Virus record (IMG/VR): IMGVR_UViG_2531839475_000013
Direction: 5' to 3' (one strand)
Source of the DNA: a virus
Taxonomy: Duplodnaviria > Heunggongvirae > Uroviricota > Caudoviricetes
Length of the DNA stretch: 38,377 bases
The notes beneath the pieces are model-generated. The model saw only the letters and a program-made list of their open reading frames with translations, made no database searches and was not told the origin of the DNA. Shown here one piece after another: positions 4,588 through 33,353 of the stretch. Both the position numbers and the translations under genes were made by a program. Each line of letters starts with the position of its first letter. The stretch's first letter is position 1.

Positions 4588-4602
4588 TTACCTTTCAGGT
4601 GA
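4588..4602. promoter_or_regulatory. operator-like palindrome TTACCTTTCAGGTGA
   Basis: Member of the repeated TTACC-N5-GGTAA family; upstream of the LexA-box promoter of the small antirepressor-like gene. Confidence 0.55.
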
Positions 4603-4641
4603 TTCGCAAAACGTGCTGGATAGCAAACAAATTATTTGCTA

Positions 4642-4657
4642 CTGTATAAATATACAG
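4642..4657. promoter_or_regulatory. LexA (SOS) box CTGTATAAATATACAG
   Basis: Perfect CTGT-N8-ACAG with AT-rich spacer inside a sigma70-like promoter (TTGCTA 4636..4641; TATTGC 4659..4664), about 20 bp upstream of the ATG at 4679. Confidence 0.75.
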
Positions 4658-4678
4658 TTATTGCATGGAGAAGATAAG

Positions 4679-4936
4679 ATGCAGCAGTATCACTATCCAC
4701 TGGAAGACGGATTTACCGAAAGGATTCACACGCCGGGAGGCGTCAGGTCACTGGTGGAGGGATCGCATTTGATGAAATTACTCCGGGATCTCGATAAGGA
4801 TGGATTTAATGTCGATGGCCCACTTGCCGAACTGACTGCACTGATTAACTACGTCACCAGCTCACAGATGTCTATGCGGGATCTGCAAACACATCTCGAC
4901 TATTGTGCCGAACAATTACGAAAACAAACCAGATAA
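4679..4936 (+). CDS. small antirepressor-like protein (standalone copy of the Bro-N antirepressor C-terminal module), LexA-controlled
   Basis: 85 aa from the ATG at 4679 (RBS GGAGAAG); sequence IHTPGGVRSLVEGSHLMKLLRDLDKDGFNVDGPLAELT...RDLQTHLDY aligns with the C-terminus of the downstream Bro-N protein (IHSPSGVLGLTENSLLMNLLNQLQEDGHDVSGAAAELT...RDIQTHAEY). Confidence 0.6.
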   Translation: MQQYHYPLEDGFTERIHTPGGVRSLVEGSHLMKLLRDLDKDGFNVDGPLAELTALINYVTSSQMSMRDLQTHLDYCAEQLRKQTR

Positions 4937-4967
4937 GGTTTGCAATTGCCAAGTGGAGTGCTTATAT

Positions 4968-4982
4968 TTACCTTTGCGGTAA
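4968..4982. promoter_or_regulatory. operator-like palindrome TTACCTTTGCGGTAA inside a larger inverted repeat
   Basis: Perfect TTACC-N5-GGTAA, flanked by GGAGTGC (4955..4961) and GCACTCC (4992..4998). Confidence 0.5.
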
Positions 4983-5076
4983 ATTTACATCGCACTCCTC
5001 TTGTGCCATAGTAATCGGGCACTGGCAAAATCCAGTGCCGGGATTGGCGTCCCGAGTTACTACAGAGGCACATATG

Positions 5077-5096
5077 CCGCATAAGCGGTTTTTTTT
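5077..5096 (+). terminator. weak intrinsic terminator (CCGC-ATAA-GCGG then T8)
   Basis: Short GC stem followed by eight T; lies between the small antirepressor-like gene and the Bro-N gene. Confidence 0.35.
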
Positions 5097-5249
5097 ATGT
5101 GTAAAGCGCACCTATTCTATGGTGGGCTGTGTGGGGGCACCGAAAGGTGCGCCGGGTCCTTTGTAGCCGGTTACGCCAACCCTGCACAGTTCACCACCAA
5201 CCGATTGGCGTCGGTAGTGGTGATTAACCTAACTACAAAGGTGATCACT

Positions 5250-5936
5250 ATGACTGCTAACGTAACCCCATCTGTTTTTCATTTTGAATCAGAAGCAACC
5301 ATTCGAGCCATTGTTATTGATGGAAATCCTTGGTTTGTTGCCAAAGACGTTATTAAAGCTCTTCAACTGACAAACCCCACTATGTCAATAAAATCTCTTG
5401 ATGATGATGAAAGGGCTAAATTTAACTTAGGCCGTCAAGGCGAAACCAATATTATCAACGAGTCAGGCCTCTACACACTGATCCTCCGCTGCCGCGATGC
5501 AGTAACACCAGGCACTATCCCCTACCGCTTTCGCAAATGGGTTACAGGTGAGGTACTTCCTCAGATCCGCCGCACCGGAAGTTACATTAAAAACTCGCTC
5601 CCGCAAGAAGAACGCATAAAGATGGTTGCCGACCAGGTAGCCAACGCCACGGCGTCAGCAGTGATGCAGGCAATGAAGATAGAGAACAAAACCTACAGCG
5701 CCCCACTGAAGCCCGGCTACCGCAGCCTGATTCACTCGCCGTCTGGTGTTCTCGGCCTGACGGAGAACTCACTGCTGATGAATCTGCTGAACCAGTTACA
5801 GGAAGACGGGCACGACGTATCGGGCGCGGCGGCGGAGCTGACCACCATGTTCTGCTACATCGTCGGTGTGAGTAAATGCCTGCGTGATATCCAGACCCAC
5901 GCGGAATACATCAACGACAAAGCAGGGTTCTTCTGA
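5250..5936 (+). CDS. Bro-N domain antirepressor
   Basis: N-terminal region (VIDGNPWFVAKDVIKALQL...) matches the Bro-N/antirepressor DNA-binding domain; RBS AAAGGTGA; start chosen at the ATG at 5250 rather than the ORF-track start at 5097. Confidence 0.7.
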   Translation: MTANVTPSVFHFESEATIRAIVIDGNPWFVAKDVIKALQLTNPTMSIKSLDDDERAKFNLGRQGETNIINESGLYTLILRCRDAVTPGTIPYRFRKWVTGEVLPQIRRTGSYIKNSLPQEERIKMVADQVANATASAVMQAMKIENKTYSAPLKPGYRSLIHSPSGVLGLTENSLLMNLLNQLQEDGHDVSGAAAELTTMFCYIVGVSKCLRDIQTHAEYINDKAGFF

Positions 5937-5978
5937 CAGCGGCGGCACAGGGATGTGCCTTTAAATAATTCTGTACGA

Positions 5979-6021
5979 TTGCAGACTGGGGGTGAATAGC
6001 GTACTATTACCTTAAAGGTAA
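5979..6021 (+). promoter_or_regulatory. sigma70-like promoter (TTGCAG-17-TACTAT) overlapped by operator TTACCTTAAAGGTAA (6007..6021)
   Basis: Hexamers with 17-bp spacing; perfect TTACC-N5-GGTAA palindrome over the -10/+1 region, immediately upstream of the accessory cassette. Confidence 0.5.
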
Positions 6022-6047
6022 ACCATGTGTTTACATGAGGAGGAGAT

Positions 6048-6257
6048 ATGGGATTTTGGTTCGCTCGTACAAAAACGAGGGATAATGCACCCAGCCCTCA
6101 GGCAAAAAATGCAGAAGTTCCGGCGTCAGCGCAGGTTAACAAGCGTGGTGGTGTGTATATCTCATCACAGCAAATTTCTGAGCTTCCTGAGGTTAAGGAG
6201 ATGCGTCGTCTCGCTGCTGCAATCGTTAAACAGGATCTTGCCACTGTAAGGAAATAG
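6048..6257 (+). CDS. small hypothetical protein, first gene of the accessory cassette
   Basis: 69 aa; strong RBS GAGGAGGAG; stop overlaps the GTG start of the next gene (TAGTG). Confidence 0.5.
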   Translation: MGFWFARTKTRDNAPSPQAKNAEVPASAQVNKRGGVYISSQQISELPEVKEMRRLAAAIVKQDLATVRK

Positions 6258-7120
6258 TGTTGTTAGCTCTTCTAATTATCCCCATTCTGGTTAGTGGTTA
6301 TATTATGATAACCGCTAACCAGTATCATTATTTCCGTTTATACCGACATGAAGGCCAGCTTCTTTATATGAAAGTTGCTGCATTAGGTACATATTGCCTT
6401 GTTGCTTCGGTAATAATTGCCGCATTTATAAAATATAAATATCCTGATTTTCACCTAGTTCACGATATGGTGGAAACTTTTAATGTAACGTCAAAACCAG
6501 AAACAGATAGAATTTACATGTGGCTACTTCTTCTGTCAGTCACATCAATTTGCTTCTCTTTGTGTTATGTATCTTTTGTTTGGCTAAAAGATCTTCTTTT
6601 AGGTTGTTTTTATAAACGTGATATTTATGACAAAATATCAGAGGCAATGAAAGCTAGGGTATTGCGAAAAACGTACTCCCAGGGTTCTTTAGATTTGCTA
6701 TTGCTTGATGCAATCGAATCAGATCCTAAGAAACCAATGTTAATTACTTTATCATCAAATAAAGTATACGTTGGAATAATAAATGGTTCTGGTGAGCCAA
6801 CGGAAAATCAAGGGCCACACCAACACATATCTTTTGTTCCTTTAATGTCAGGGTACAGAAACAAAGAAAATTTATCTGTTACATTTACAAACGCTTACCC
6901 AGGTGAAATCCAAATTAAGCGCAGTGCTGCGATAAAAGGGATAAGCAAAAAGAAAGTTCAAGGTCTAGAAATTATGGTATCTATAGACGAAATAAGTCAT
7001 ATATCATGGTTTGACTTTGAAGTATATAAGGCAACAAATAACAAAGTAGAAACAAAGGGTCATGTTGTTAATGTGACCAAAAATGGTCGCAACATATACT
7101 ACAGAAGTGGCAGAAAATAA
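6257..7120 (+). CDS. membrane protein, 3 N-terminal TM helices plus ~170-aa soluble domain, no recognised family
   Basis: 287 aa from a GTG start coupled to the upstream stop (alternative ATG at 6305); TM helices LLALLIIPILVSGYIMI, AALGTYCLVASVIIAAFI, IYMWLLLLSVTSICFSLCYVSFVWL; strongly AT-rich. Confidence 0.6.
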   Translation: MLLALLIIPILVSGYIMITANQYHYFRLYRHEGQLLYMKVAALGTYCLVASVIIAAFIKYKYPDFHLVHDMVETFNVTSKPETDRIYMWLLLLSVTSICFSLCYVSFVWLKDLLLGCFYKRDIYDKISEAMKARVLRKTYSQGSLDLLLLDAIESDPKKPMLITLSSNKVYVGIINGSGEPTENQGPHQHISFVPLMSGYRNKENLSVTFTNAYPGEIQIKRSAAIKGISKKKVQGLEIMVSIDEISHISWFDFEVYKATNNKVETKGHVVNVTKNGRNIYYRSGRK

Positions 7121-7145
7121 ATTTTACGCAGTTTAGGTGGCTTAT

Positions 7146-7649
7146 ATGGATAATACTATCTTAGGCGCATTGATAGGTGCAGTTATTGCTATAGTTTCCA
7201 CTTATATAAATGCAGGACAAGGATACAAAAACAGCATAAGATTAGAGCGACAAAAAATATTAAGGGATAAACGCGAGCAATTATTTATAAATTGTATACT
7301 TACTAAAAAAGTCATAGATTCAAGCACAATTACCATTCTCAATTTCGTAAAAAATGCCAGATACCACTCTGATAGTAAATTTGACGTATCAAGAGCGAAT
7401 CCGTTGCAAACGATGGAAATGCTAATAAACATATACCTTCCTGAGTATAAAAAAGACTTACAAGAACTCAATAATGCGTATCAAGAATTTCACAAATACT
7501 ACTCTCAATATACATGTGCACATACCTTCAAAAATATGCCTGATAATGAGAAGTCGAGGTTTATTGAGGAGGCTGATTTTTATGCAAAAAAGATATATGG
7601 CAAACTTAATGATATTAAGGACAAGATATCATTAAACTCAATAGTATAA
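7146..7649 (+). CDS. membrane-anchored protein, 1 N-terminal TM helix plus helical domain, no recognised family
   Basis: 167 aa from the ATG at 7146 (RBS AGGTGG); TM helix ILGALIGAVIAIVSTYI; AT-rich like its neighbour. Confidence 0.55.
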   Translation: MDNTILGALIGAVIAIVSTYINAGQGYKNSIRLERQKILRDKREQLFINCILTKKVIDSSTITILNFVKNARYHSDSKFDVSRANPLQTMEMLINIYLPEYKKDLQELNNAYQEFHKYYSQYTCAHTFKNMPDNEKSRFIEEADFYAKKIYGKLNDIKDKISLNSIV

Positions 7650-7723
7650 CAGCGATACTGCTGCTGACGGCTCCCGCTGCGGTGGGCGTTCTGCGGATTC
7701 CCGCCCAGGCGGCGGTGGCATTC

Positions 7724-7751
7724 GTTAAAAACAAGGCCGCGAAAGCGGCCT
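7724..7751 (-). terminator. intrinsic terminator ending the late operon (AGGCCGC-GAAA-GCGGCCT, T-run on minus strand)
   Basis: 7-bp GC stem with GNRA loop; on the minus strand it is followed by TGTTTTTAAC; lies between the convergent lipoprotein gene and the accessory cassette. Confidence 0.6.
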
Positions 7752-7763
7752 GTGACATGTCAC
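7752..7763. repeat. perfect 12-bp palindrome GTGACATGTCAC (copy 1 of 3)
   Basis: Identical 12-mer also at 25171..25182 and 27436..27447; abuts the terminator hairpin. Confidence 0.8.
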
Positions 7764-7766
7764 GAC

Positions 7767-8180
7767 TTATAAAGATGACTGATATTTTACAACTCTGTTC
7801 ATGGCATCTTTTTTCACCGAGCTGATATCAGTTCTTATTTTGGCTTCGTCATTACTGCTTATCATGCTATTAATTTTTTGCACTGACATGCCGTTTCTTT
7901 CAGCCATTGCACATACAGCAGCATCGTATGAAGAACTCGCTGCGATGGATATCACCTTGTTACACTCAAACACAGCACCTTCAGCAATATCAGATGCCGA
8001 TGAGGCTGGCTTGGTATAAGTCTTGACGTAGTGATCAATACAACTATCCTTCGCCGTCTTGGCAAGAGAAAAATCCATTTTAACTTTGTCGCAATATGCC
8101 TTATCAACACCGTCATAAACATCATAGGATGTCGAGCAAGCGGATATCAAAAATACCGATAACAGCAATAATTCCTTCAT
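7767..8180 (-). CDS. Cys-rich lipoprotein, last gene of the late operon (candidate exclusion lipoprotein)
   Basis: 137 aa; signal peptide with lipobox (MKELLLLSVFLISAC); six Cys in the mature part; lower G+C than the flanking virion genes. Confidence 0.6.
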   Translation of the reverse strand: MKELLLLSVFLISACSTSYDVYDGVDKAYCDKVKMDFSLAKTAKDSCIDHYVKTYTKPASSASDIAEGAVFECNKVISIAASSSYDAAVCAMAERNGMSVQKINSMISSNDEAKIRTDISSVKKDAMNRVVKYQSSL

Positions 8181-8189
8181 TGTTGTTCC

Positions 8190-10664
8190 TTATTGCGGAG
8201 TGACATCCTGAGGTCGCCACCAGTATGTCTGGTTAAACTCTTTCTTTGAACGTTGCTCCATTTTACGCAAATAGCCTGGTGAAAAATACTCCTGCATCTG
8301 GTTAAAGATCATGTGATCGAGAGCCGCCTTTAAGTACCAGAGATTCGCACCTGGCATCAGACCTTTCCCCAGCTTAACCAGATCACCACCAGTCTGCTCA
8401 TTCTTCCCTTCCACAGCATTTAACGGTATGCCCTGAGCAATCTTCACTACGTCATCAACCAGACCAGCTACCGGGCCAAGCATCGACGCCAACGCGCCGC
8501 TTCCGTACCTGGTGTGGTCAGAGAAAAGAAAATCACCATACAACCCTGCACCACCACCTTTTAAAAATGCATTTATCCAGAATTTAACCATGTTGTCACC
8601 GGTCATTTCTTTTGGATTTCTCCCATTAATAAGATCAGTAATCTGCATGGAAAGAGCACCAAGCATGGTTGTGCTTGCTAAAAACGTTGCTATATATGCT
8701 GCACGCCCACCAGCAGACGGCATCCCCATAGCTCTATGCCAGTGACGCATAACTACCGAGATAGGGAACGATTTAAACAGGAAAACACTTCTCGTTAATT
8801 CACCTTTCCATGTTCCACGCTGAAGACCAGACCCTACGAACATCTGTTCACGTGCGCCCGGTGTAATAACAGCCATATCAACTTCTTCAGTTACGGCACC
8901 GAGCAGTTTACGCATTGCCTCAAATTTCACGCGTTCAGGCTCACCAAGATGTTTAACTGCTGAATCAGGGATACGCATAATGCTTTCCGGTGTCAGCATC
9001 GTATTATTACCGTTCCCCCAGTCCTCCTGTTGCGCCAGCTTCCATACGCTCCAGTCTGTGTCAGTAATCCCTTTGCTTTTCAGGATACGAAAATCAGAGT
9101 CATCGAGGCTACGAAGGTCTGGTGTCCGTGACACTACTTCTCCCAGGCTTCCCATCATGGTTACGCCATAGGCGCGCTTGTGCGCATCTGACCATGCTGT
9201 AAGCCCACTGGCACGCATTACCGCCGTTGCCGCCCAACGAGACACAGACGGCCCCATATTATCCATCGCCCAGCGGTTAACGCTGCCAAGTAGAGATTCC
9301 ATCGCCAGGCCAGCGCGGCGCGCCCGCGCAAGTTCTGTACGGTTCGTTGGGTCCATAGCTTCAAGCTGGTTGCGAAATAACTGGTTCATTGGAAGGTTGG
9401 TAACCTTCGCAGACAGATACATGGTTCCAAGATCAGAGAACGATGACAGCAACGCGGATCCGAGTCTGCTGGCAACCAGCCAGTTGCGGATATTGTCAGA
9501 CCATCGCGCGATGTGCGGATTCGCTACAGGCTGTGTTTTTCCGGAAATAAAGTTGTACAAGTTCTCTGTTTTGTTCGCCAGACGCTCGACGCTACCGGTT
9601 TTACTCGGGTTAGCTGTTGCCGTTTCTGCCTTAACCTGATCAAGAAGGGAGCGGAAAACATGATCGGGGTTTGGGCCATATGTTTCCACCAGTGCAATAT
9701 CTTTACTGATACCTTCCAGGTGACCGACCATGATTTCCCATAGAGAGCGATCGCCATAAAGTTGCTGATATTGCAGATAGGAATCTGCATCTTTGAAATG
9801 TATCTGTCGTGATGCATTACCACGGTTAGCACGTGCGCCGGAAATTCGCATTCCGGTATCAGTAAGCTTATTCAGCCCACCAGTAGCGATCGTGTTATAA
9901 GCCTCTCCAAGAAATTCAGACAACTCGGCATCGTTCATCAGTTGTCCATCGGCTCGGATATAATATTTGCGATCCAGCTTACCTATAACATCGCTAACCC
10001 ACTTATCCTTTGATACCGACCCAACCTTTTCCATAGAATGATGTTGAGGGATCCCCCAGTTTTCGAGATAGCCAATGTCCCCACCAGCATCATTAAACCG
10101 GCGGCGCAGCAGCTCTGTAACTTCTCTCCACGCCTTAGCACCTTTTCTTGCTTTAGCATTGCCAGTATTTTGCCCCCGCATTTCATATACCAGGTCACGC
10201 ACGCCAGCTTCATCTTCAAACAGGCCAAAAAAGCGAGGATCAACTGCTTCAAATGCCTCTTGCAATTGACTCAATGCATAATCACGAGTGGCTTTTGTTC
10301 TGGATTCAACAGAGAGGAAATTCGATTTACCGTCTGCATTAAAAGCAATAGTACGGTTAAGAGCGCCAAGTTTCCCATCAGCCCCTTGATAGCTATTGAT
10401 AAATTTATCCAATCTCTGACGTGCGGCTATAGTGAGGGCCACACGACGTTTCTTTAATGCCGCTTCTCGCTGTAATTCTTCAGATGCCAATTGTGCTGCA
10501 CGATACAACCGTTCTGATTCGGAAAGTTGTCGCCACGACATCGGGTCATCACGAGCAATGGAGCGCATATTTCGATAAATGCGGTCTTCAATGTTCTGTA
10601 TTTCTCGCGCCGTTAACGTGCGCTGCGCCGCCTGCTGGACCGCTTGTATACATTCCTGTCTCAT
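8190..10664 (-). CDS. internal virion / DNA-ejection protein (T7 gp16-like position)
   Basis: 824-aa ORF inside the tail/ejection block; start overlaps the upstream stop (TAAATG) with a GAGAGG RBS; no catalytic motif recognised. Confidence 0.5.
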   Translation of the reverse strand: MRQECIQAVQQAAQRTLTAREIQNIEDRIYRNMRSIARDDPMSWRQLSESERLYRAAQLASEELQREAALKKRRVALTIAARQRLDKFINSYQGADGKLGALNRTIAFNADGKSNFLSVESRTKATRDYALSQLQEAFEAVDPRFFGLFEDEAGVRDLVYEMRGQNTGNAKARKGAKAWREVTELLRRRFNDAGGDIGYLENWGIPQHHSMEKVGSVSKDKWVSDVIGKLDRKYYIRADGQLMNDAELSEFLGEAYNTIATGGLNKLTDTGMRISGARANRGNASRQIHFKDADSYLQYQQLYGDRSLWEIMVGHLEGISKDIALVETYGPNPDHVFRSLLDQVKAETATANPSKTGSVERLANKTENLYNFISGKTQPVANPHIARWSDNIRNWLVASRLGSALLSSFSDLGTMYLSAKVTNLPMNQLFRNQLEAMDPTNRTELARARRAGLAMESLLGSVNRWAMDNMGPSVSRWAATAVMRASGLTAWSDAHKRAYGVTMMGSLGEVVSRTPDLRSLDDSDFRILKSKGITDTDWSVWKLAQQEDWGNGNNTMLTPESIMRIPDSAVKHLGEPERVKFEAMRKLLGAVTEEVDMAVITPGAREQMFVGSGLQRGTWKGELTRSVFLFKSFPISVVMRHWHRAMGMPSAGGRAAYIATFLASTTMLGALSMQITDLINGRNPKEMTGDNMVKFWINAFLKGGGAGLYGDFLFSDHTRYGSGALASMLGPVAGLVDDVVKIAQGIPLNAVEGKNEQTGGDLVKLGKGLMPGANLWYLKAALDHMIFNQMQEYFSPGYLRKMEQRSKKEFNQTYWWRPQDVTPQ

Positions 10665-24236: not shown

Positions 24237-24273
24237 TTGACATTTAACGCACAAATTATTACCTTTCAGGTAA
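24237..24273 (+). promoter_or_regulatory. promoter (-35 TTGACA at 24237..24242) with operator TTACCTTTCAGGTAA (24259..24273)
   Basis: Consensus -35 hexamer; perfect TTACC-N5-GGTAA over the -10/+1 region; module resembles 4530..4605 and 30185..30275. Confidence 0.5.
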
Positions 24274-33276: not shown

Positions 33277-33353
33277 TTACCTAACGGGTAATTTTTTTAA
33301 CTCATATCTATTGACATCAAACCATATACGCATAATTATTACCTCAACGGTAA
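33277..33353 (+). promoter_or_regulatory. early promoter (-35 TTGACA 33311..33316) bracketed by two perfect operators (33277..33291 and 33339..33353)
   Basis: TTACCTAACGGGTAA and TTACCTCAACGGTAA; the proximal one overlaps the -10/+1 of a promoter driving the recombination operon. Confidence 0.55.

Follow-up and report, generated by a model that had tools for sequence, protein, structure and literature searches.

Two described kinds of prophage system resemble the locus analyzed here. The first is that of the two-gene abortive-infection systems with a membrane effector, among them lambda rexAB, a two-gene prophage accessory that is cotranscribed with cI and encodes one soluble protein and one polytopic inner-membrane protein, RexB, with four transmembrane (TM) helices. 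The second is the immI/sieA region of phage P22, which lies between the ejection genes and the tailspike gene, on the opposite strand and beside the antirepressor genes, and which has an inner-membrane product in SieA. The locus considered here occupies positions 5979 to 7766 of a 38,377-nucleotide (nt) stretch of Caudoviricetes DNA (IMG/VR record IMGVR_UViG_2531839475_000013), referred to as a whole as the window. An earlier reading of the sequence by itself, here called the original prediction, had proposed that it is an AT-rich two-gene membrane cassette with its own operator-controlled promoter. Our best explanation for the region 6027-7650 is that a phiV10/epsilon15-like prophage acquired it horizontally as the cargo of a variable slot and that this cargo has two independent parts. 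One is a module made up of a small open reading frame (ORF) of 69 amino acids (aa) and the gene for a 287-aa inner-membrane protein (gene 1). The other is the gene for a 167-aa protein (gene 2), added later in one sublineage.

How does this locus compare with the two systems? Like rexAB, it is a two-gene prophage accessory with one soluble product and one that is a polytopic inner-membrane protein, and by analogy its logic might be similar, with the soluble partner controlling a membrane-perturbing partner. Unlike rexAB, however, it resembles no PADLOC model in sequence or by profile, its soluble partner is only ~60 to 90 aa long, and gene 1 encodes three TM helices followed by a predicted Sm-like domain. 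A further difference is that rexAB is transcribed along with cI, whereas the promoter here is predicted to be off in the lysogen. The resemblance to immI/sieA is one of position, strand, and product, and the original prediction had equated the slot with the sieA/immI region of P22-like phages. The position does correspond, but homology was not detected, as tblastn with both proteins matched no P22-like record. In addition, the module appears tied to the operator of the main repressor instead of being expressed in the lysogen, and it is limited neither to this slot nor to this type of phage.

A VARIABLE SLOT WITH FOREIGN CARGO

The window holds an almost complete phiV10/epsilon15-like (Uetakevirus-type) Escherichia coli prophage whose nearest annotated relatives are phiV10, TL-2011b, phiv142-3, and vB_EcoP_ZX5. 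E. coli FDAARGOS_1257 has, next to guaA, a prophage 99.9% identical to the one in the window, for which the RefSeq annotation includes the same three genes, all as hypothetical proteins (Table 1). As judged from the ORF map and the RefSeq annotation, the cargo slot is variable, flanked by the ejection-protein genes and the tailspike gene, with antirepressor genes adjacent.

The two larger genes stand out by composition. Their G+C content is 0.343 (gene 1) and 0.313 (gene 2), compared to 0.487 for the whole window and 0.51 for the neighboring Bro-N gene, and G+C at third codon positions is 0.27 and 0.30, respectively, compared to 0.45 to 0.57 in flanking genes. The earlier estimate, by eye, of about one-third G+C for this pair is therefore borne out by computation (34% and 31% versus 49% for the window). 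The 69-aa ORF, at 0.481, is not deviant. Is the cargo a moron in the sense of Hendrix? It has the deviant base composition (0.31 to 0.34 versus ~0.49 to 0.51 in the flanks), but a promoter and terminator imported with the insert are missing, both being part of the phage backbone. What stands of the horizontally acquired accessory system first proposed is thus its foreign composition, its membrane association, and its variable slot; the gene pair, the promoter, and the regulation have to be redrawn.

THE CONSERVED UNIT

Which of the three genes belong together? The original prediction had joined the 287-aa and 167-aa proteins into a two-gene cassette, but the conserved partner of gene 1 turns out to be the 69-aa ORF upstream of it. 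This emerged from 61 genome loci retrieved by profile, using an alignment of closer homologs, from Enterobacterales, Pseudomonas, Asticcacaulis, Lautropia, Flavobacterium, and Acidobacteria. Full-length gene 1 homologs are present at 52 of them, and at 49 of these 52 a small ORF abuts or overlaps the gene 1 start (gap of -1 to +24 nt) and shares a motif. In the window this motif reads ...KRGGVYISSQQISELPEVKEMRRLAAAIVKQ, within VNKRGGVYISSQQISELPEVKEMRRLAAAIVKQ, and in most relatives VVGRGTVxIDPxEV...A..IV. The GTG start of gene 1 overlaps the TAG stop of the 69-aa ORF by 1 nt here, so that the window, like the 49 loci, has the small upstream gene translationally coupled to a larger one that is expected of a type II toxin-antitoxin (TA) module. 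As had been proposed, the 69-aa ORF has a strong ribosome-binding site; GAGGAGGAG lies at 6037-6045, two bases 5' of the ATG, with a GGAGG core 4 nt upstream. Its product is identical to WP_000508164, which occurs in many E. coli prophages that have gene 1 without gene 2.

The pair of small ORF and gene 1 is widespread, being found in Proteobacteria, Bacteroidota, and Acidobacteria and on three types of prophage, IncC plasmids, and chromosomes. Its carriers include Providencia epsilon15-like prophages, Cronobacter phage phiES15 (where it lies between int and attP), P2-like Klebsiella and Salmonella phages, and the ends of Citrobacter and other lambdoid prophages, in addition to IncC plasmids and one non-prophage chromosomal site. 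The commonest E. coli variant sits between int and the prophage end. A third conserved gene was ruled out by clustering all neighboring ORFs: none is conserved across taxa, and the residual sharing is synteny within one Pseudomonas clade. Because the small ORF accompanies gene 1 across taxa and no other neighbor does, the conserved functional unit, on comparative evidence, is the 69-aa ORF plus gene 1 and not gene 1 plus gene 2.

Gene 2, by comparison, has a narrow distribution. Its family numbers just 13 proteins, of which nearly all come from E. coli. When 5,426 complete E. coli genomes were surveyed, with positions 5900-7800 as the query for the slot, 492 had a match to the slot region, 28 carried gene 1, and 8 carried gene 2, always downstream of gene 1; gene 2 is missing from the other 20 of the 28 gene 1 carriers. 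Nothing was found for it in a phage collection (tblastn, 50,697 records) or in a plasmid collection, and on a metagenome contig a 58%-identical homolog lies behind a different, unrelated upstream ORF. Relatives that lack gene 2 have gene 1, then an intrinsic terminator, and then an intact gene for a 53-aa "transmembrane anchored protein." Alignment with them indicates that the insertion of gene 2 replaced the terminator and the 5' half of this backbone gene, and the G+C content from 7650 to 7766 is 0.64. The same intrinsic terminator also ends the other cargo in TL-2011b and phiv142-3, and because it is found behind different cargo, it is assigned to the backbone. Judged from these alignments and its distribution, gene 2 is a later, separately acquired add-on that is unrelated to the module.

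The cassette had also been said to end at a convergent terminator. The G+C-rich hairpin is indeed there (Table 1), but because its T-run is on the minus strand, it primarily serves the convergent virion/ejection operon. A promoter-like site, GTGACC-16-TATACT (9/12 matches to consensus), occurs at 7073-7100, where the coding sequence of gene 1 nears its 3' end. Lying 46 nt before the gene 2 start, it might allow gene 2 transcription of its own as well.

Three further leads were followed and dropped. A similarity of gene 2 to the 1-TM effector of a reverse transcriptase-nitrilase system (BLASTP E = 0.05) came from a single comparison and involved only the TM region. The "2TM + 1TM + TIR" system that Rousset et al. 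found in the P2 hotspot of phage AC1 has membrane proteins of 126 aa (2 TM) and 186 aa (1 TM) (PMC9122126, Table S2A), but the sequences are unrelated, gene 2 matching the AC1 1-TM protein at a BLASTP E value of just 5.4. Finally, the AlphaFold2 (AF2) model of gene 2, with a predicted local distance difference test (pLDDT) score of 49.5, was too poor for structure-based searching.

Table 1. Coordinates of the features in and around the cargo slot, numbered from the first letter of the window
Feature	Position	Strand	Remarks
Slot promoter	5979-6007	+	TTGCAG (5979-5984), 17 nt, TACTAT (6002-6007); read directly; backbone
Operator	6007-6021	.	TTACCTTAAAGGTAA, perfect palindrome; overlaps last -10 base and transcription start region
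69-aa ORF	6048-6257	+	Small basic soluble protein; strong ribosome-binding site, no membrane segment, phrog_5739 match
Junction RNA structure	6250-6335	+	15-bp hairpin at 6287-6322; outer stem of 6250-6259 (stop/start) with 6326-6335
Gene 1	6257-7120	+	287-aa inner-membrane protein; three N-terminal TM helices, helical linker, predicted Sm/LSm-like barrel at ~145-255
Gene 2	7146-7649	+	167-aa protein; one N-terminal TM helix, all-helical remainder; later separate cargo
Remnant of backbone gene	7650-7728	+	3' half of 53-aa gene; RefSeq pseudogene; right cargo junction
G+C-rich hairpin terminator	7734-7751	-	Terminator scan and phiV10 annotation; kept in all aligned relatives

THE GENE 1 PROTEIN AND ITS FAMILY

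Hydropathy places TM segments at residues 1-19, 40-58, and 90-108 of the gene 1 protein and at residues 1-19 of the gene 2 protein, with none in the 69-aa protein. This agrees with the three and one TM helices originally proposed, as does, for gene 1, the AF2 model. How is the gene 1 protein oriented in the membrane? Since lysines plus arginines are most numerous after the third TM helix, the positive-inside rule suggests an N-out/C-in topology, with the C-terminal domain in the cytoplasm. The AF2 model, built with 23 homologs, has a mean pLDDT of 70.7 and consists of three long TM helices, two linker helices, and, at residues ~145-255, a helix followed by a five-stranded bent sheet. A helix plus a five-stranded bent beta-sheet is what defines the Sm fold, and the soluble domain is accordingly predicted by the model to be Sm/LSm-like. 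The invariant residues of the family fall mainly in this barrel (Y171, S198, G199, R201, and Y214), while further ones (L11, G14, G33, Y37, and G44) lie in the first cytoplasmic loop and TM region.

The domain nonetheless differs from those of Sm, LSm, and Hfq proteins in several ways. It is fused to a membrane anchor, its sequence similarity to them is not significant, and the model has a low-confidence insertion of ~25 residues between strands 4 and 5; formation of a hexameric or heptameric ring and binding of nucleic acid or nucleotides are conjectural. A comparable architecture is that of the MscS channel, the core of which consists of three TM helices followed by a cytoplasmic Sm-like domain. 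The gene 1 protein shares with it the three TM helices, the predicted N-out/C-in topology, the predicted cytoplasmic Sm-like beta domain, and a similar length (287 versus 286 aa), but it has a helical linker of ~45 residues and an obligatory small partner gene and appears to lack the C-terminal alpha/beta domain. Nor does it belong to the MscS family by sequence: the family profile aligned with E. coli MscS at an hhalign E value of 0.46, none of 60 family members had an MS_channel Pfam match, and MscS was not among the top structural matches.

The family to which gene 1 belongs is large and has no name. Its profile retrieves 2,780 representatives of 50%-identity clusters at an E value of <=1e-3 and 1,615 at <=1e-10. 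As the original prediction had stated for the two large proteins, no recognized family accounts for them: neither these nor the 69-aa protein had a significant match in Pfam, NCBIfam, PADLOC, or PDB sequences. All three do have families in PHROGs (phrog_5739, phrog_3630, and phrog_36918), which are functionally unannotated. The 60 diverse members of the gene 1 family contain no Pfam domain, LSM included, and have only 2 isolated weak PADLOC matches; the family profile had no match in PDB. In a further profile search that yielded 110 proteins, the named ones were all "hypothetical" or "uncharacterized," and there were no fused domains. A fold search of BFVD returned weak matches only, helical or TM driven. 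Among the 50,697 phage records, tblastn with gene 1 matched only Cronobacter, Klebsiella, Salmonella SEN4/5 (P2-like), and Pseudomonas phages. We found no prior description of the module in the literature, nor a relevant account of Sm-like membrane defense proteins, and neither the literature nor the DefensePredictor supplements of a recent machine-learning study of defense prediction mention these accessions or PHROG identifiers.

A PREDICTED RNA STRUCTURE AT THE JUNCTION OF THE PAIR

The two genes of the module meet within a very stable predicted RNA structure (folding energy of -32.5 kcal/mol, z = -6.2 versus shuffled sequences). Within it lie the 69-aa ORF's stop codon and the start codon and first 25 codons of gene 1, and its hairpin, which is followed by a U-rich tract, was flagged as terminator-like by a terminator scan. 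The sequence of this stretch, and of the 5' ~100 nt, does not differ between E. coli lineages in which gene 1 is otherwise only 87% identical, and in other Enterobacterales a weaker core hairpin is retained, with 2 compensatory pairs. By sequestering the gene 1 start, the structure would couple translation of gene 1 to that of the 69-aa ORF. It might also reduce the output of gene 1 relative to that of the small protein.

A CARGO SOCKET UNDER PREDICTED REPRESSOR CONTROL

What controls expression of the cargo? The sigma70-like hexamers proposed for the cassette are present where they had been placed, and a perfect operator palindrome does overlap the promoter (Table 1). The promoter is not, however, the cassette's own. 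The slot promoter and operator are kept in TL-2011b, phiv142-3, and E. coli prophages with different cargo, and the first two of these diverge from the window only after GGTAAAC, at ~6024-6027. In TL-2011b, the cargo that follows is a 59-aa ORF plus a YafO-family toxin gene (locus L086, 2685-3384), and in phiv142-3 it is two small ORFs (locus L087, 2637-3113). Because they are conserved with other cargo downstream in these two phages, the promoter and operator are, by this comparison, a "socket" of the backbone and were not brought in by the cassette. The YafO-family pair resembles the module in gene order, small then larger, in the promoter and operator used, and in position; it differs in that the second gene of the module encodes a membrane protein instead of an mRNA interferase and the first has no recognizable antitoxin fold. 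The slot promoter matches the sigma-70 consensus at 7/12 positions and was not listed by a consensus scan, so its credibility would rest on its conservation and on a geometry common to the other operator-bearing promoters in the window.

Sites of the same family are numerous. In all, the window has 13 TTACC-N5-GGTAA sites with no more than one mismatch, versus 0.66 expected: 4588, 4968, 6007, 24259, 27325/27343, 30196/30258, 32180, 32517/32565, and 33277/33339. Sites 32517 and 32565 lie between a divergent 76-aa ORF and a 194-aa helix-turn-helix (HTH) gene, with a weaker third site between them that was seen by eye, and 33277 and 33339 lie between the HTH gene, which they closely follow, and the rightward early genes. 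This is the layout that would be expected of OR- and OL-type operators. The 194-aa HTH protein has the very sequence of the phiV10, phiv142-3, and vB_EcoP_ZX5 repressor (100% identity), and overexpression of that repressor shut down lytic genes experimentally (PMC9782041). Single operators precede both antirepressor-type genes (4588 and 4968) as well as the cassette (6007). At 4968, 6007, and 33339 they overlap or abut a TAxxxT-like -10 that is preceded, at a distance of 16 to 17 nt, by TTGxxx (promoters 4940-4968 and 33311-33339 in addition to that of the slot), and at 24259 there is a TTGACA -35 sequence 17 nt upstream, with the -10 inside the operator. The arrangement suggests a dispersed repressor regulon. 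Dispersed operators of this kind are comparable to those of P1 C1. The sites are spread over at least seven regions of the prophage and not only around the repressor gene, those at 24259 and 27343 being in or near the late and replication regions.

The operator of the slot is of the same kind as those on either side of the prophage repressor gene. One therefore expects the cassette to be repressed in the lysogen, contrary to the autonomous regulation in the original prediction. It is probably silent there and on after infection, induction, or repressor inactivation, which would be the opposite of a classical lysogen-expressed exclusion gene. The Providencia prophage (locus L010) is consistent with the same logic. 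It has the palindrome TTAACC-N5-GGTTAA upstream of its module (7632-7649) and again upstream of a 211-aa gene (9969-9986), as might be expected of a heteroimmune relative with a different immunity specificity. SOS control of the cassette was considered and rejected, there being no LexA box near 5940-6050; the sole perfect box in the window (4640-4659) is upstream of a different gene.

In the phiV10-like phages, the slot promoter and its operator, together with a small gene of the backbone and a terminator, form a constant cargo socket, predicted to be under repressor control, into which different two-gene payloads are inserted. Its presence in the 492 slot-matching E. coli genomes makes it a source from which further payloads could be mined. 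The predicted wiring, with the payload coregulated with antirepressors and off in the lysogen, is unusual for prophage cargo and raises the question of whether such payloads act in induction or infection rather than in lysogeny.

GENOMIC NEIGHBORS OF GENE 1 RELATIVES

Gene 1 relatives are found in accessory positions, namely, the P2 hotspot, the gap between int and att of lambdoid prophages, and conjugative IncC plasmids. At 43 of 52 loci the gene 1 homolog is lower in G+C than its flanks (median difference, -5.8 points). In Klebsiella phage ST15-OXA48phi14.1 (locus L015, 3786-6495), the small ORF and 3-TM gene are followed by a 69-aa ORF and the gene for a 477-aa bSEFIR/TIR protein (PADLOC E = 6.9e-103), all in one orientation and all within the P2 gpA-gpQ locus, which has been defined as a defense hotspot (PMC9122126). 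PADLOC matches (E <= 1e-5) among 150 ORFs flanking 31 diverse loci were to a CBASS cyclase plus NucC, AbiEi/Eii, AbiLi, PD-T4-6, AriA, MADS, GajA, and PDC-S08. The genes of the window itself (the 69-aa ORF, gene 1, gene 2, and a 137-aa neighbor) had no match in PADLOC-DB v2.0.0 at E <= 1, and neither did homologs from four phages.

POSSIBLE FUNCTIONS OF THE MODULE

What, then, might the module do? We favor, at somewhat short of an even chance, a mobile TA-like membrane effector module that serves in conflict with phages or other mobile elements and that is expressed here on derepression. The gene 1 protein would oligomerize via its Sm-like domain into a ring with 18 to 21 TM helices and would perturb or gate the inner membrane. 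The 69-aa partner would control or neutralize it in a toxin-antitoxin-like manner, and the module would abort infection or exclude competing phages or mobile elements. Its expression, like that of the antirepressor genes, would require that the repressor be missing or inactive, as in infection, induction, or antirepressor attack. A TA-like design agrees with the order of the genes, with the stop/start overlap, and with the YafO-type pair in the TL-2011b socket, and a conflict or accessory role is favored by the accessory positions, the low G+C relative to the flanks, the PADLOC matches among the neighbors, and the RNA structure at the junction. The genes, their composition, their conserved pairing and mobility, the backbone origin of the promoter, and the operator family are established by the sequence comparisons made here. 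The Sm-like fold and the topology are predictions from models, and that the protein oligomerizes and acts on the membrane, that the small partner controls it, and that the module counters phages are our inferences. Should the module prove active, a large protein family that is without a Pfam, NCBIfam, or PADLOC model would join the catalog of mobile-element accessories, and it would do so with an unusual combination, a membrane anchor fused to a predicted Sm-like ring.

Several points weigh against this TA-like effector. (i) Most neighbors of gene 1 family members are housekeeping genes. (ii) In a clade of Pseudomonas oryzihabitans and Pseudomonas luteola, the module is syntenic in many species and has near-host G+C, so that it looks like a stable resident there rather than a fast-turnover defense gene. 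(iii) The predicted repression in the lysogen would be atypical for prophage-encoded defense. (iv) No homology to any validated defense, exclusion, or toxin protein was found. (v) No antitoxin DNA-binding fold (ribbon-helix-helix, AbrB/MazE, HTH, or Phd) was found by Pfam among 30 homologs of the small protein at E <= 1, and its profile matched nothing in PDB below an E value of 0.28; an AbrB/MazE-like fold, which the string VVGRGTVxIDP had led us to suspect, gained no support from either search. (vi) The Sm-like assignment depends on a model of moderate confidence, and in sequence, hhalign places helix 1 and the first two strands in register with E. coli Hfq without reaching significance (E = 0.26).

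A more specific proposal, which we consider unlikely, is that the protein is a membrane-tethered Sm-like ring that senses nucleic acid or a nucleotide on the cytoplasmic side of the inner membrane and gates an 18- to 21-TM pore, with the small partner as plug, trigger, or antitoxin, and that it represents a large unnamed conflict family of ~2,800 clusters at 50% identity. Were this sensor-pore reading true, it would add a new architecture of abortive-infection or exclusion effector, one that is present on prophages, plasmids, and islands across several phyla.

Could the module serve addiction and nothing else? As a pure TA system with gene 1 as the toxin and the small protein as the antitoxin, it would stabilize its carriers and have no anti-phage role, which would suit its presence on conjugative IncC plasmids and at prophage ends. 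The small gene comes first, with the stop/start overlap, the same slot of TL-2011b has a YafO-type pair, and the RNA hairpin could cut the output of the membrane protein relative to that of the small one. An antitoxin-like DNA-binding domain is missing in the Pfam and PDB profile searches, though, and the promoter here is a repressor-controlled one of the backbone instead of an autoregulated one. A module that is silent in the lysogen could not stabilize the prophage, and we regard pure addiction as rather improbable.

A lytic-cycle function seems about equally improbable. The module would in this case be a phage accessory, expressed early along with the antirepressors, that acts in secondary-infection exclusion, membrane potential or lysis timing, or counterdefense. 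T4 Imm and Sp, for example, exclude secondary infections during lytic growth. The overlap of promoter and repressor operator, the regulon that the module has in common with the ant genes and early promoters, and the analogous palindrome upstream of the module in the Providencia epsilon15-like prophage would all make sense. A phage-specific role would be senseless, however, on plasmids, at non-prophage chromosomal sites, and at the syntenic Pseudomonas locus, and most phiV10-like phages do without the module, which is carried by just 28 of the 492 slot-matching genomes.

The position that mirrors P22 immI/sieA, between the ejection genes and tailspike and beside ant, could also point to classical, SieA-like superinfection exclusion expressed in the lysogen under its own regulation, in which the 287-aa and 167-aa proteins jointly block phage DNA entry. 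Both are membrane proteins encoded by AT-rich cargo. A joint function is difficult to reconcile with gene 2 being dispensable in 20/28 E. coli carriers and missing from all distant loci, neither protein matched a P22-like phage, and the backbone promoter with its immunity-region operator predicts silence in the lysogen, all of which makes this explanation distinctly doubtful. Least probable is a physiological MscS-like channel that brings the host an ionic or osmotic benefit, a lysogenic conversion outside genetic conflict, even though the MscS core has the same order of domains as that predicted for the gene 1 protein (three TM helices, N-out/C-in, and then an Sm-like domain in the cytoplasm) and inheritance in one Pseudomonas clade is stable and syntenic.

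NEIGHBORING FEATURES

To the left of the slot, a perfect LexA box, TACTGTATAAATATACAGTT (4640-4659), is found upstream of an 85-aa gene (4679-4936; MQQYHYPLEDGF...), with the operator at 4588-4602 just before the box. The product of this gene is a homolog of the C-terminal portion of the Bro-N antirepressor (5097-5936), and the gene looks like an SOS-inducible mini-antirepressor. Such a protein would explain how a prophage whose repressor has no annotated peptidase domain is induced. Further along, a promoter-like site (TTGCAA-17-TATATT) with an operator (4968-4982) is followed ~100 nt later by a strong intrinsic terminator at 5076-5097 (GCCGCATAAGCGGTTTTTTTT), which precedes the likely real start of Bro-N (ATG at ~5250). 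Candidate roles for the interval from 4940 to 5097 are those of a short leader, attenuator, or small RNA of the antirepressor region.

On the other side, the minus strand carries, at 7767-8180, the 137-aa ORF mentioned above, with a lipoprotein-type signal (MKELLLLSVFLISAC...), a G+C content of 0.39, and a match to phrog_8691 (function unannotated). The virion/ejection operon ends with this gene, in place of which related prophages have other small ones (98, 119, 126, and 149 aa). The spot is a possible second variable slot, perhaps for an exclusion lipoprotein of the Cor/Llp type.

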